From Thermoplasmatales archaeon (GTDB lineage Archaea > Thermoplasmatota > JASEFT01 > JAUWIS01), in the NCBI GenBank assembly GCA_030019485.1, contig JASEEW010000002.1, forward strand, positions 1 to 32,249: DNA of 32,249 bases, given 5' to 3'. Both the position numbers and the translations under genes were made by a program. This document shows positions 881 to 5,939 of the stretch, in pieces (the stretch's first letter is position 1; the number at the start of each line of letters is the position of its first letter). The notes under the pieces are model-generated. The model saw only the letters and a program-made list of their open reading frames with translations. It made no database searches and was not told the DNA's origin.

Positions 881-1600
881 TCATTTTATCATTCCCTTGA
901 ATCTTAATGCATCCTCATACATATAAACATTGTTGAAAAAAACATAATCATTTCCTTTGCATATTTTTTTCAACCTTTCTAACTCACTGTCGGAATACCT
1001 GTACCTGTAACCGCCGATGCCATGGAGTCTGAAATAACCAAAATCACCATAAACCTGTTTGTTTTTAAAAGGATCAACACAATGAACCAATTCTAATTCT
1101 TCACATATCTTTTTAACAGTTTTTTCATCCCATTCCCCCCTGGGCTCCCAGGCAAAAACAAAATCCCTGGGAATGGATGAGAAAAAATTATACATGTTTT
1201 CAATATTATTTTTTTCCTGTTTAAAACTGGGAGGGCACTGGAATAAAATAATCCTTGCTCTCAGTGTTTTTGCTATTTCTTTTGTTTTTTCGTAGGCATC
1301 AAAAACCTCTTCAATGTTTTTGAAGAAACCAGCATGTCCTGGTTTTATCTTTGTTTTTCTGTATGTTGGTGATGAAATGGGATGGGTTATAACCTGGTTC
1401 GCCTTTAATGTGAACTCAAAATTTTTTGGGGCTTTTTCCCTCCATTTCTCAGATGTTTTAATTTCTGGGATTTCATAAAATGTTTTCTGTATTTCAACAG
1501 CATTAAATCTTTCAAAGTATTTTTTCATCCCAACAGGGAAGCCGCAGCATCCTATTTTCACAATACAGGATATGCAATGAATGCTATTATCTTTTTTCAT
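881..1600 (-). CDS. DUF72 (YecE-like) family protein
   Basis: 239-aa ORF. It shows the family pattern FNAVEIQKTFYEIPEIKTSEKWREKAPKNFEFTLKANQVITHP. Its ATG overlaps the stop of the upstream radical-SAM gene as ATGA (1597-1600). Confidence 0.85.
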   Translation of the reverse strand: MKKDNSIHCISCIVKIGCCGFPVGMKKYFERFNAVEIQKTFYEIPEIKTSEKWREKAPKNFEFTLKANQVITHPISSPTYRKTKIKPGHAGFFKNIEEVFDAYEKTKEIAKTLRARIILFQCPPSFKQEKNNIENMYNFFSSIPRDFVFAWEPRGEWDEKTVKKICEELELVHCVDPFKNKQVYGDFGYFRLHGIGGYRYRYSDSELERLKKICKGNDYVFFNNVYMYEDALRFKGMIK

Positions 1601-2634
1601 CTAAGAAGATGAAGGTTTCCAATCCTCACATTTTTCAGATGCTTTTCTGCAATCTCCAAGCATTCATATGCCTGTTTCTTTGATGTTAAAGGCATGTCGT
1701 CCATGTAAAAATGTGGATAAAATCCCAGAAGGCAGTATGGAATTTTATTATCAATTGATGAAATAAATTTTGAGATTGATTCAACCTCTTTTTTATCAAT
1801 ATATCCTGGGACAAGCAGCGTGCTTGCAGTAAGGAGATGATAACCAGCATTTTTATTGTATTCTCCAAGAAACCTGAAGTTTTCAATTGTCTGCCTGTTG
1901 GTAACACCGCATAACGCAATATTTAGCTTCTCATCCCATGCTTTCAAATCAAACTTTATTGTTCCACCAGATTTTTTTGAAATAGCCGCCATTCTTTTTG
2001 CCATGTTTTTGTTCATGCTACCATTCGTCTCCCAGCATATTCTGACATTATCATTTTTTTCAACAACAAGTTCAGATGTTTTCAATGCATGAATAATTTG
2101 TGGTGTTGGGTCACCGCCAAAAAAGCATACGCATCTTGTATTTTCATCAACCATACCTGCAAGTGTCTCAGGGCTCATAACAGGGGATAGATTTTTTAAA
2201 AGGTTTCTGTAATGCCAGTTCTGACAGTAAAGGCAGTTGAAGGAGCAATTGTGACTGAAAATCCCAAAGCCGTGCATAAAGTTGCTGTATGGCGCACTCT
2301 TGGTTTTAACCTCAAAATCGTAAACATCGCCATTATACGGCAAGGATTTAATTGATGTTATTCTTAACACGTGAAGATTACTATTAATAGGTTTGCTAGC
2401 AAACTTTGATAGCTTACCTGAGATATGCTCTCTGCTTAGTCTCAGCTTCCTCCGCCTCTTGATCGTCTGTTTTGCCCATTTTGGTAAATTACTTATATCA
2501 AAGAGGAATATGGGATAGACATCTGATATAGGACTTCTCCCTTTAGAAACGGGTAGTGTTAGATTATTTCGCCTGAGTAGTGAGCCCGTGTAAGTGGCAA
2601 ATCTCTTGAGGCTCTTGTATATACTTTTTACATG

Positions 2635-2830
2635 TACACTACCTATACCGGTAGTGTATCAGGGGTCAACGTTCCTGGCTCTTGAGGCTTAAGTCCTCGT
2701 CGGGGAGCTTGTTGCCCCCTGCCTATACGGCTTACACGGATAGCAAGTTGTGGCAATGTTTGTCCACGTATCACACACAAGTTTGTGTTCCCGTATAGGA
2801 CATTGGGGCTGTTTGACCCCCCTGATACAG
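2635..2830 (+). ncRNA. Candidate structured leader RNA of the IS110 element (bridge-RNA-like). The ends are not determined.
   Basis: TATATA lies at 2618-2623. Nested stems were read by eye. The outer stem is GTATCAGGGGTCAA (2656-2669) pairing with TTGACCCCCCTGATAC (2813-2828, 2-nt bulge). Other stems are CCTATACGG (2722-2730)/CCGTATAGG (2791-2799), GGGGAGC...GCCCCC (2702-2719) and ACACA-AGTT-TGTGT (2775-2788). CTTACACGG (2732-2740) is the exact reverse complement of CCGTGTAAG (2586-2594) at the left junction. Confidence 0.35.
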
Positions 2831-2845
2831 GAGGCGATATAGAGT

Positions 2846-4048
2846 ATGGGAAACATGGTATATGTAGGTATTGATACAGGCAAAGAAACCTTTAGTGCTT
2901 GTGCACTAAATATAGAAGGAACAGAACTAATGACACCAACCAAATATGAGCATGGTAGAGAAGAATACAGAAAGTTTTTAGGGAATGCAAAAGCGATAGC
3001 CAGTGTTACTGGTGGGAGGCTTTTGTTTGGAATAGAGTCAACAGGGATTTACCATGTGCCGTTGTATGACTACCTTACGAAGAGAAACTATCAGGTGCGC
3101 GTGTTCAACGGTCTGGAATTATCCGGTATGCGTAAAAGTAGGATACGTAAGACAAAAACAGACGCTATAGATGCAAGGTTAATCGCAGGGTATCTGTTGA
3201 TGTGTTTTGATAAGGATAAGAGGAGTCCATTACCGCTTGAGTTAAGAAATCTGAGAGAGTTCTGCAGAATAAAGAAAAGGTTAACGAGAAACCTTACAAG
3301 GATAAAGAATCAACTGATAAGAGATTTAGATCTGATATTTCCAGGGTTTACAGGGATATTTTCTGACATGCTTGGTAAATCGTGTTTAGAACTTCTAGAA
3401 GAAGCATGTACGCCTAAAGAAATTATAGGTATGTCGAAAGAAAAATTACGGAAATATGTGTCTGAGAAACATGCAGTGAAACTTAAAATAGCAGCAGCGA
3501 AAACAACGTCAGTGAGTAGTTTTGATGAATCTGTAGTGTTTGAGATAGGTAGTTTGTGTAGGCAAGCAAGATGTTTACTTGATGAGCTGTCCGGGGTGAA
3601 AAAGGAAATAGATAGTGAGTATTCGCAGATAAAAACACCGTTGCAGAGTATTCCTTGTATAGGCCCAGGCACTGGTCCTGTGATACTTGCAGAGATAGGT
3701 GATGTAAAAAACTTTGATCATCCTAAAAGGATAGTGGGTTTTGCAGGGATAGATCCTGTGATAAAAGAATCAGGTAAATCCAGAAAGGAGTGTCGTATAT
3801 CAAAAAGGGGTTCAGCGTCATTGCGGTGTGCGTTGTATCAGGCAGCTTTTGCAGGGATTACTTGTAATCCGGTAATTAAAGCATTTTATAGGAAAAAGCG
3901 TTCTGAGGGGAAAACTCATAGGGATGCTGTTGTTTGTTGTGCAAGGAAGCTCTGTTACATTATCTATTCTGTCTTAAGTAATAACCGGGTGTTCTATGTT
4001 CCATCCCATATTATCGCTTCAAATGCTCAAATGAGCAAGCAGGGTTAG
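2846..4048 (+). CDS. IS110-family (DEDD/RuvC-like plus C-terminal Ser domain) transposase/recombinase
   Basis: 400-aa ORF. Motifs: VYVGIDTGKETF, GIESTGIYH, KTDAIDARLIA, and the C-terminal LQSIPCIGPGTGPVILAEIGDVKNFDHPKRIVGFAGIDPVIKESGKS...RISKRGSASLR. AGGAGG at 2829-2834 lies upstream of the ATG. Confidence 0.92.
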   Translation: MGNMVYVGIDTGKETFSACALNIEGTELMTPTKYEHGREEYRKFLGNAKAIASVTGGRLLFGIESTGIYHVPLYDYLTKRNYQVRVFNGLELSGMRKSRIRKTKTDAIDARLIAGYLLMCFDKDKRSPLPLELRNLREFCRIKKRLTRNLTRIKNQLIRDLDLIFPGFTGIFSDMLGKSCLELLEEACTPKEIIGMSKEKLRKYVSEKHAVKLKIAAAKTTSVSSFDESVVFEIGSLCRQARCLLDELSGVKKEIDSEYSQIKTPLQSIPCIGPGTGPVILAEIGDVKNFDHPKRIVGFAGIDPVIKESGKSRKECRISKRGSASLRCALYQAAFAGITCNPVIKAFYRKKRSEGKTHRDAVVCCARKLCYIIYSVLSNNRVFYVPSHIIASNAQMSKQG

Positions 4049-5939
4049 GGATTTCTTTTTTCTTAATCCAACGTGTAGTGAGTTCTAGAGAAAAAGAATA
4101 AAATTACGCAAAAAATAATAGGAGTAAGGAGTCGTTTTACTCGTCTTTATTTAGCGGATGCTATCTTTCTATCCCTATCGTGAGCCCGCAATAGTAAACT
4201 TTAATAGCAAGCTCCCCGCCATGCAGCCAAAGTTGATAATTTCTCCCTTGTAATATTCTAGGGGTTATACCGAGCCTCGTTAGTAAATATTGAATCCCAT
4301 AAGCAAGCTCTTCGCTAGCAGTTGTACATGAAATTGAGATGCTTTTAAAAACTTTTTTCCTCCCACCAGAATATCTAGCATGACTGTCGCCAACGAAATA
4401 AGAGTCTAATAAGTTCATAATAAACTTCTGTGGCATTGCGTAAACAAAATTAGGAATTCTTTTTTTATAGCAGTTAGAACCTGCGGCTAAAATCTTATTA
4501 AAAAGCAACGATAGAATCTCACTTCTGGCGTACACTCTAATGCAGCTATCTTTCCCAAGATATTTTGATATGCGAGTGTCTGCCGTAACGCCAAATACTA
4601 TTTTTATAAGATGCTTTGTTTGGTTTGCCAACCCCTTTTCCTTTATCCCAAAACAAAATTCAACTATGCCCTTAGATGTATATCCTTCTGATAAGTAGTA
4701 GCCGAGAAGTGTAGCTAATTCTGGGCTAATTTTTATAATAGCATATAGTCTATTTTTCCTGCTGCCATATTTTGCGCCTATTTTTAACTTCTTCTGCCTT
4801 CGCTTGCTGTCTTCTAGTTTTAGATATACCCAAAGAGGTAATGAGTCGGCTCTTCGCCAGTTATCAATTAGATACTCCGGAATTTTAAGTAATTTTGCTA
4901 ACTCAGATCTTGATTGTTTGTATAGGAGCTCTTTAGCATTATACACTGATATTTTTTCAACACCTAACTTTTGAAACTCTTCAATTAAATCGATTTCCTT
5001 AAGTGATTGAAGTTTAGGTCTTGGAATGTTCTTAGCAACTGGGATATAATCTCCTTTTTTCAGATATCTAGCGGGTTTCGTAGTAAAACAACTTTTTTCT
5101 AACACGATCATTGGGTGATCCAAGGTGACATGGATGGCCCTCCCATTCTCAGTTTCTATTTCCAAGATTTTACTGCTACCGCGCCTCCTCATTATTTTGC
5201 TTACGGGAGTATACATAATCCTTAAAGATTTTGGGTCAAAAGACGCAATTTTTATTTCATGTTTAGGTTTTGCCCAAATGATATCTTTAGAATGAATAAT
5301 CATATCAGACTCCTTAAACTCTTTATCTATCAACTCACCAATGGGTTGGATAGAAGGAACACCTCTCACAATAGCAAACATACGCTCAAAAGATGGTAGG
5401 CAGGCACCATAAAAAACAGCAAGATTCCTGTGAGGATAACATAAATCCCTGTTTGAGCAGAAGTTCATTGAAACACAGTTCGTGGGCAAAACGTCATAGT
5501 AGCATTCAACAACAGCATTCTCATCAACCCTGCTTTTGATTTTACCATGAACGTTTGTCCTAATACCACAGTAGCCCACATCATTTTCTGGGATTCTGCA
5601 ATTGTTCACACACAAACCACATGGAACACCATCCATGGGAGGCTTATTACGGAAAATGCCAGAGCATTTTCCTAATATTTCAGGAAAAGCCTCTTGGCTT
5701 TTCCGTGAAATAACAGGGAGAGCAAAACTTTTCCTGGACATGGTATGCGCATTCTCAACAAAAGGCAGAGCCTCATCCCACTTATCCCTGATGCATTCTA
5801 AGCATACCTTCAACGTCTTTGATATTTCCTCAGATTCTTTGTCGCAAATTTTGCATCTGGACATATTTGGTGAAACAGCGGAGTTTTTCTTAAAGTTTGG
5901 CATGAAAACTATTTAAACGCCTAATCATTTTTCATTACA

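Follow-up and report, generated by a model that had tools for sequence, protein, structure and literature searches.

The closest described system is the insertion sequence IS621 of Escherichia coli (Durrant et al. 2024, PMC11208160; Hiraizumi et al. 2024, PMC11208158; PDB 8wt6), in which a bridge RNA, encoded in the left end of the element upstream of a DEDD/Ser recombinase, folds into a 5′ hairpin and two arms that contain internal loops. In IS621, as in thousands of IS110 elements, 8-9 nt on the 5′ side of a loop pair with the bottom strand and 4-7 nt on its 3′ side with the top strand (PMC11208160). Pairing of the right donor guide (RDG) in IS621 is discontiguous (PMC11208160), and a handshake guide pairs with the left-donor end after strand exchange (PMC11208158). 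In elements of the IS1111 group, the RNA is located downstream of the gene, within a long right end, and sub-terminal inverted repeats of 7-17 bp occur (PMC11208160). For archaea, parts of Vaysset et al. (2024, bioRxiv 10.1101/2024.06.21.599552) describe 662 IS110 recombinase homologues scattered among bacterial clades, a scatter read there as the outcome of repeated horizontal acquisitions. Here we describe a member of this group in a 32,249-nt stretch of DNA from a Thermoplasmatales archaeon (contig JASEEW010000002.1; hereafter, the window). Positions 2616-4211 are an intact IS110-group insertion sequence (IS), with a CT core on each side, in an archaeon of the Thermoplasmatota type. Judging from sequence comparisons, we are highly confident that its untranslated leader encodes a two-loop IS110-group bridge RNA with a structured core at ~2634-2829. 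Structural covariation, covariation of guides with flanks across relatives, and conserved catalytic residues together indicate that this RNA is very probably bispecific.

The limits of the element can be set from its relatives and from the gene that it interrupts. Four metagenome contigs align with the window over ~2614-4213 (L010 and L012, whose recombinases are 83-84% identical, and L013 and L014, at 55-56%), and outside this interval they are unlike the window and unlike one another. Homology starts at CT-TGTATATAC and stops at ATAGCAAG-CT, and relatives' contigs from public runs part from the window sequence just before 2612 and behind 4213. All related elements have left junctions of the form X-CT-TGTAT(A/G)TAC and right junctions of the form ...ATAG(C/T)AAG-CT-Y, with the same CT at each. 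Removing 2616-4213 (1598 bp, the element plus one CT) merges the minus-strand frames 4214-5903 and 1597-2615 into a single open frame, restoring a minus-strand host gene of ~900 codons. This frame reads ...NLAVFYGA, then an intein (CLPSFERMF..., a LAGLIDADG domain, ...GFGIFSHN), then CSFNCLYCQNW, a radical-SAM cluster motif, its parts being divided as ...AVFYGA / C-LPSF...intein...SHN / CSFNCLYCQNW. In Pfam, the right-hand fragment matches Intein_splicing at profile positions 11-108, while the left-hand fragment matches it at 109-155 and then matches Radical_SAM. The homology limits and the restoration of the host frame therefore define the element as 2616-4211, with CT at 2614-2615 and 4212-4213. 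A single core dinucleotide flanks both ends with no further target duplication, and excision of the element with one CT is precise on paper, giving the reconstructed empty-site joint ...TTGAGGCT-CT-CCCCGCC... and the predicted circle junction ...ATAGCAAG-CT-TGTATATAC.... Neither the empty site nor the circle junction of the window copy was found in the four DNA runs that hold the relatives' contigs.

The core register at 2614-2615 was chosen because the host frame is restored only by deleting 2616-4213. An alternative register, with the left core at 2612-2613 and a left end starting CTTG, was rejected: its 2-bp longer deletion leads to a stop after 16 codons, and its two extra bases occur in no relative.

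The interrupted locus (1597-5903, minus strand) consists of three nested selfish layers, the IS110 element lying within a LAGLIDADG intein, with the endonuclease domain on one side of it and the C-terminal splicing block on the other, and the intein in turn splitting the CxxxCxxC cluster motif of a radical-SAM enzyme. The best NCBIfam match of this host protein is an AmmeMemoRadiSam-type family, at a score far under that family's cut-off.

The structured region 2634-2829 lies entirely within the left end, upstream of the recombinase gene (Table 1). The segment 2596-2845 has a folding energy of -93 kcal/mol (z = -3.6 against dinucleotide shuffles). Further relatives were gathered by exact-protein look-ups, and 14 distinct leaders were aligned (alignment A6). 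RNAalifold on these 14 elements gave 42 pairs, 22 of which show compensatory changes on both sides. Observed cells were paired at 95.2%, versus 87.0% after shuffling, and none of 500 shuffles reached the observed value; the same was true for the pairs and the cells changed on both sides and for the covariation score, while further pair types were matched in 37 of 500. Sliding the 3′ partners by 1-3 columns lowered pairing to 35-55%. The outline drawn by an earlier, sequence-only reading of the window, a long-range stem enclosing at least three inner stems, is borne out by this fold, in which the perfect 11-bp stem P1 encloses P2, P3, P5 and P7; the same reading had proposed the folding of homologues and the comparison of loops with flanks across copies, both of which are reported here. 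Two internal loops, between P2 and P3 and between P6 and P7, are unpaired and are the least conserved parts of the RNA, set between conserved stems. A 5′ hairpin of differing sequence precedes P1 in nearly all 13 related elements. The exceptions are the L174/L179/L183 group, with two short hairpins, and L180, whose hairpin lies nearer the left end. In L010, a 12-nt insertion lengthens the P7 stem.

Table 1. Features of the insertion sequence, its predicted RNA and its junctions, in window positions
Feature	Position	Strand	Basis or remark
Left target (LT), final 7 flank nt ahead of core, TGAGGCT	2607-2613	+	inside restored intein frame; relatives' homology begins only after it
Left CT core copy	2614-2615	+	X-CT-TGTAT(A/G)TAC in relatives; frame restoration needs this register
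IS left end = right donor (RD), TGTATATACTTTTTA	2616-2630	+	alignment A6 columns 1-15; highly conserved, TATA-like motifs
5′ stem-loop, stem 2634-2643 / 2650-2659	2634-2659	+	folding and repeat listing
P1, closing stem, perfect 11 bp in window	2655-2665 / 2819-2829	+	6 of 8 pairs compensatory across 14 elements
P2, basal stem of target-binding arm (CAACG)	2667-2671 / 2710-2714	+	3 of 5 pairs compensatory
Left target guide (LTG), CCTGGCT + CT, sense of LT + core	2674-2682	+	variable 5′ side of loop 1; GGCTCT (2677-2682) matches flank
P3, apical hairpin of target arm (GAGG ... CCTC), 2684-2698	2684-2687 / 2695-2698	+	100% of cells paired
Right target guide (RTG), CGGGG + AG	2701-2707	+	exact reverse complement of CT-CCCCG at 4212-4218
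Target-loop handshake guide, CTTG	2708-2711	+	complements last 4 right-end nt, CAAG (4208-4211)
P4	2717-2720 / 2805-2808	+	helix of consensus fold
P5, basal stem of donor-binding arm	2722-2730 / 2791-2799	+	7 of 9 pairs compensatory
P6, ACAC with GTGT	2734-2737 / 2785-2788	+	consensus helix 6
Left donor guide (LDG), ATAGCAAG + TT	2740-2749	+	ATAGCAAG (2740-2747) identical to last 8 right-end nt, 4204-4211
P7, apical hairpin of donor arm (GTGG ... CCAC), 2750-2767, length varies among elements	2750-2753 / 2764-2767	+	consensus helix 7
Right donor guide (RDG) region	2768-2781	+	ACAAG (2777-2781) = reverse complement of CT+TGT; GTAT (2768-2771) = reverse complement of ATAC
P1 3′ strand, end of structured RNA, adjoins GGAGG (2830-2834)	2819-2829	+	fold, covariation
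IS110-family DEDD/Ser recombinase, 400 aa, intact	2846-4048	+	Pfam PF01548 (4e-33), PF02371 (3e-26)
Right end, 163 nt, terminates TTTAATAGCAAG; last 8 nt = left donor (LD)	4049-4211	+	relative's contig diverges behind 4213
Right CT core copy	4212-4213	+	relatives' junctions, host-frame restoration
Right target (RT), CCCCG	4214-4218	+	reverse complement of 2701-2705

The two sides of loop 1 change with the DNA into which each element is inserted. Together with the handshake bases, the right target guide, CGGGGAG(CTTG) at 2701-2711, is a perfect 11-nt inverted match to the right junction. Its five variable bases shift with the flank in every element of known right flank: CGGGG faces CCCCG in the window, AACGA faces TCGTT in L010, CTAAT faces ATTAG in L013, GCGAA faces TTCGC in L172 and L171, CGAAT faces ATTCG in L177, TTCGG faces CCGAA in L180, and CACGA faces TCGTG in L183, with one mismatch each in L170 and L178. 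On the left, the guide shares its sense with flank and core, as in GGCT-CT in the window, GCTCA-CT in L010, CACCCA-CT in L014, TCTGCG-CT in L170, TTCGCG-CT in L171 and L172, GCGCT-CT in L173, GACGT(G/A)A-CT in L176 and GTAT-CT in L180. Counting one insertion per element, cognate identity between left target guide and left target was 55/77, versus 2.1/7 (about 30%) for non-cognate combinations, and cognate complementarity between right target guide and right target was 43/45 across 9 elements, versus 1.3/5 (27%). None of 100,000 permutations of the pairings reached the observed sum on the left or on the right. L171 and L172 are one element at two unrelated sites, both of which have the motif TTTCGCG-CT-TTCGC, and a contig from run X9 has an L010-type right end followed by TCGTTC and then by sequence unlike L010. 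As read from the 14 aligned elements, the guides of this clade appear to follow the rule of 7 nt plus CT for the left target guide and 5 nt plus AG for the right.

Further observations concern the target sites. An 11-nt direct repeat, CTCTTGAGGCT, which the sequence-only reading had listed without interpretation, is present as reported in the flank (2603-2613) and in the RNA (2679-2689); it lies 2 nt off the register of all relatives and crosses P3 in the RNA. After the internal GGCT repeat of the RNA is allowed for, ~7 nt of this identity are independent, corresponding to a chance of roughly 1 in 10 over all offsets. The offset identity may be fortuitous, or it may represent a second pairing register that aids the choice of a site weakly matched by the left target guide (6 nt). 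L183 sits in tandem CTTCGTGTGG units (L183:1-22 and 1727-1742), and L171 and L172 sit in TTTCGCG-CT-TTCGCG-like motifs at two loci. That these targets are repeats suggests that the elements home to short dispersed repeats.

Loop 2 relates in the same manner to the ends of the element itself. The left donor guide ends in TT where the DNA has CT, and the first U can wobble with the bottom-strand G. This guide covaries with the right end, reading ATAGTAAG in L183 and AGTATG in L180. In the right donor guide, all 14 elements have CAAG (2778-2781), the complement of the core and the left-end TG; by analogy with IS621, GTAT could pair with the left-end ATAC across a bulge. The handshake guide in loop 1 is CTTG in 12 of the 14 aligned elements and differs in L176 (CGTA) and in L180 (CATG), where the right end terminates in ...TATG.

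The structure by itself would also fit a simpler explanation, in which the leader is merely a structured 5′ untranslated region (UTR) that governs how the recombinase mRNA is translated or how stable it is, and has no guide function. The 3′ strand of P1 stops at 2829, one base before the ribosome-binding GGAGG at 2830-2834, the leader structure is conserved, and the public runs found to contain the sequence included no RNA run that could tell a UTR from a free small RNA. However, a UTR alone leaves unexplained why the sides of loop 1 change with both flanks in 13 elements, and why loop 2 holds a copy of the right end that covaries with it. That the loops are the least conserved parts, between conserved stems, also counts against a role restricted to the mRNA, which we consider highly improbable.

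A second alternative differs from the bridge RNA described here in where it puts the ends and the guides. The sequence-only reading had set the element at ~2589-4179, flanked by two copies of GTGAGCCCG (2580-2588 and 4180-4188), with CTTACACGG reading the left or circle junction and CATTGGGGCT the right flank. The repeat is real, as is a 9-nt complementarity between CTTACACGG and CCGTGTAAG (2586-2594), the first arm of which lies at 2731-2739, one base from the position originally given. We nevertheless attach virtually no credence to this arrangement. Relatives are homologous over 2614-4213 and differ outside it, and the host gene is restored only by removal of 2616-4213. A chance 9-nt repeat had served as anchor for the proposed ends, which for this reason lay 27 nt (left) and 32 nt (right) from the true ones; as a target duplication, GTGAGCCCG was rejected, its right copy being inside the element in a poorly conserved stretch. 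Perfect 9-nt pairs are common in these 2 kb (12 inverted and 5 direct), so a single 9-mer match carries little weight, and the 9-nt match proposed as a guide is at chance level. The real junction, at 2614-2616, is ~20 nt to the right of 2586-2594, which had been taken to span it. The circle junction derived from those ends was consequently not the one given above, and the leader measures 230 nt (2616-2845) instead of 257 nt. CTTACACGG is not a donor guide but a conserved strand of the donor arm between P5 and the left donor guide, and its ACAC is the 5′ strand of P6, pairing within the RNA. The homologous segments are conserved (TTTACATGG, TTTACACGA, GTTACACCA and others) and in 11 other insertions agree with the 60-nt left flank of the same insertion over no more than 2-6 nt. 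CATTGGGGCT (2801-2810) holds the 3′ strand of P4, and the sequence with which it had been compared, 4184-4193, is inside the element; the real right target guide had gone unnoticed. What survives is the general idea of a bispecific bridge RNA with donor and target loops, and with donor and target both in the window, but not the specific anatomy.

The right end also contains a stretch (4166-4190) in which ~24 nt of the window are wholly unlike the L010/L012 element, which is 84% identical elsewhere. This stretch, which includes the chance repeat GTGAGCCCG, is bordered by the well-conserved blocks TTTAGCGGATGCTATC and AATAGTAAACTTTAATAGCAAG.

The protein encoded downstream of the leader is an intact recombinase. 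Both recombinase domains, the RuvC-like DEDD_Tnp_IS110 and Transposase_20, are present, and among proteins of solved structure the IS621 transposase (8wt6, E = 1e-20) is its best relative. D10, E64, D106, D109 and S319 align on the catalytic positions of 8wt6, in the motifs GIDT, IE.TG, KTD..DAR and SK.G. None of 17 homologues departs from E64, D106 or S319, and D10 is kept in nearly all of them.

The likeness to IS621 extends to most parts of the system. Both elements have a left-end RNA upstream of a DEDD/Ser recombinase, made up of a 5′ hairpin and two arms, each with its internal loop. In both, loop 1 carries left target plus core in the same sense on its 5′ side and core plus right target as the reverse complement on its 3′ side, and loop 2 treats the two ends of the element, right and left, likewise. 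The core is CT in both, the bases directly 3′ of the right target guide complement the left-donor end, and the catalytic residues align. The sides and strands of the guides in the window thus fit the published IS621 rule (PMC11208160), and the handshake rule fits too (PMC11208158). The two systems differ in their hosts, an archaeal TATA/BRE-type promoter being needed here in contrast to the sigma-70 junction promoter of IS621. They also differ in the recombinase, which here has 400 aa versus 328 in the solved chain and is aligned by HMMER in two stretches only. The right target guide here has a fixed 5 nt plus core, and the handshake has 4 nt (CTTG). A covariation-backed P1 that ties together the 5′ and 3′ ends of the two-arm core may be a further difference.

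With the IS1111 group, the present element shares the recombinase family and an RNA guide, the 3′ seekRNA or bridge RNA of that group, that reads target and donor. Unlike in IS1111 elements, the guides here are upstream of the gene, and the left end (2616-2845, 230 nt) is longer than the right end (4049-4211, 163 nt). The terminal inverted repeat is merely CT-TG...CA-AG-like, and no long sub-terminal inverted repeat was found among the repeat pairs listed for ~2 kb around the element. The picture drawn by Vaysset et al. agrees with ours in that the present RNA model also matches bacterial elements; the parts of that study considered here treat proteins, and archaeal bridge RNAs, guides and targets are not described in them.

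These comparisons suggest how the element could have reached its present site. The RNA would consist of a 5′ hairpin followed by the P1 closing stem, which would hold two arms, each with an internal loop. Loop 1 would read the target, with CTTG (2708-2711) serving as handshake guide for the last right-end bases, and in loop 2 ATAGCAAG(TT) at 2740-2749 would copy the right end while ACAAG at 2777-2781 complements the core and the first left-end bases. Held by the recombinase, the RNA would bring the circular donor junction, right end (RE)-CT-left end (LE), to the ...GGCT-CT-CCCCG... target. Strand exchange at CT, in an order presumed to be that of IS621, would then have put the element inside the intein of the radical-SAM gene.

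That the RNA is made, and where it would start and end, is a prediction from the DNA. Three TATA-like motifs are present: TTTAATAG in the right end (4200-4207), TATATAC (2618-2624) and CTTTTTA (2624-2630). The second coincides with the TATA-like box already noticed at 2618-2623, where TATATA is indeed found, and the right-end motif is conserved, taking the form TTATATAG in relatives. The usual distance from an archaeal TATA box to the start of transcription is ~26 nt. At this spacing, the predicted starts are ~2632 (in the circle only), 2647 and 2654, and the conserved 5′ hairpin would be part of the RNA only with the start at ~2632. Once integrated, the element has host DNA in the place of TTTAATAG upstream of its left end. 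We tentatively raise the possibility, which we think rather doubtful, that the bridge RNA is switched on only after excision, TTTAATAG acting as an archaeal TATA box ~26 nt upstream of ~2632 in the RE-CT-LE circle. If true, the element would have an archaeal equivalent of the bacterial junction promoter, with the same 8 bases acting both as promoter element and as target of the donor guide.

Several points weigh against the bridge RNA interpretation. Pairing of the right donor guide is only partly contiguous, CAAG alone being invariant. A donor-loop handshake was not found, as the two bases 3′ of the right donor guide do not complement the left target. The left target guide of the window matches its flank over 6 contiguous nt including the core, that is, at 4/7 left target positions, and the matches in L174 (3/7) and L183 (2/7) are poor. 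The guide and flank strings used in the permutation test were taken by hand from the alignments, and the cases are not fully independent because several elements are close kin (L014/L178, L013/L177). Likeness to the IS621 bridge RNA was judged from published descriptions alone. Among the public runs found to contain the sequence when searched with it, there was no RNA run, and the host assembly (88% complete) has no second copy detectable by DNA or by the RNA model described below.

The last two points bear on a further possibility, that of an immobile relic, which by descent would encode a true bridge RNA but would be a fixed copy no longer transcribed or active in this host. It is a single copy in the assembly, only 2 of the 151 genomes sampled from the phylum, one of them the host's, match the RNA model, and no RNA run was among the public runs found to contain the sequence. 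Conversely, the 400-aa frame is intact with all catalytic residues kept, and the right target guide, left donor guide, handshake, both cores and the ends of the element are perfect. Apart from the interruption, the host gene shows no decay to the left or right of the element, a sign of a recent insertion, and repeats are commonly collapsed or lost in metagenome bins. We therefore regard a relic as unlikely, though less so than the two alternatives considered above.

The predicted bridge RNA belongs to a family that is widespread beyond this host. A covariance model, R1, was made from the two-arm core (163 positions, 34 pairs), with P4 left out after the first structure, where the alignment was one column out of register. 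It scores 150 bits on the window. Of 163 other IS110 loci, fetched by protein similarity, 87 contain matches at E <= 0.01, with 88 matches in all. Three matches end at a contig edge and the rest span the whole model; where gene positions are known, the matches lie just upstream of the recombinase gene. Archaeal matches include Methanoperedens, Methanovorans, Thorarchaeota and Promethearchaeota, and bacterial matches include Vagococcus, Lysinibacillus, Neobacillus, Paenibacillus, Planctomycetota, WOR-3 and Coriobacteriia, with E values of 1e-9 to 1e-4 over the whole model for Vagococcus, Lysinibacillus, Neobacillus, Paenibacillus, Planctomycetota and others. Given matches across bacteria and archaea, this is therefore a common leader RNA of IS110-group elements and not a lineage-specific invention. 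A scan of 2300-4500 against Rfam 15 at E <= 10 returned noise only, with no match to a bridge RNA family. Within the phylum, recombinase relatives are only 31-39% identical; a 53%-identical recombinase is assigned by NCBI to a Thermoplasmatota archaeon. The window also encodes an archaeal-type threonyl-tRNA synthetase (NF003068, 846 bits) with an archaeal editing-domain family.

Several related loci show departures from the complete element. In L171 (300-366), ~135 nt of the leader are deleted relative to L172, from just past the right target guide (GCGAA) to the 3′ strand of P1, leaving the recombinase frame intact; the whole donor-binding arm is gone, and this copy could therefore move only with RNA supplied in trans. 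L011 (1501-2699) has a recombinase gene that is 84% identical to that of the window but lacks its first 9 codons; the bridge RNA leader and the last ~140 nt of the right end are missing too, and unrelated sequence lies on both sides. From its sequence, L011 appears to be either a remnant left by truncation or a copy that was captured in a different context. One contig, L041, has two full-length matches to the RNA model (43-218 and 1723-1896) on the same strand, ~1.7 kb apart, and may carry two IS110 elements in tandem. The stored gene calls at L170:557, L178:187 and L180:1201 begin at ATGs inside the bridge RNA, and the true starts by alignment lie 55, 33 and 117 nt downstream of them, respectively.

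Taken as a whole, this is a canonical, ordinary IS110-group bridge RNA system in an uncultured archaeon, and it leaves the known mechanism unchanged. Bridge RNAs are being intensively developed into programmable tools for recombination, and to our knowledge almost all work on them has concerned bacterial elements. The locus provides a fully worked natural archaeal example, in which donor ends, both guides, handshake, core and target are all visible, and in which the identity of the target is proved because a host gene of ~900 codons is restored when the element is removed. The occurrence of the same RNA family in Methanoperedens, in Asgard-type archaea and in Bacillota bears on the proposed kinship of archaeal C/D-box guide systems with IS110.

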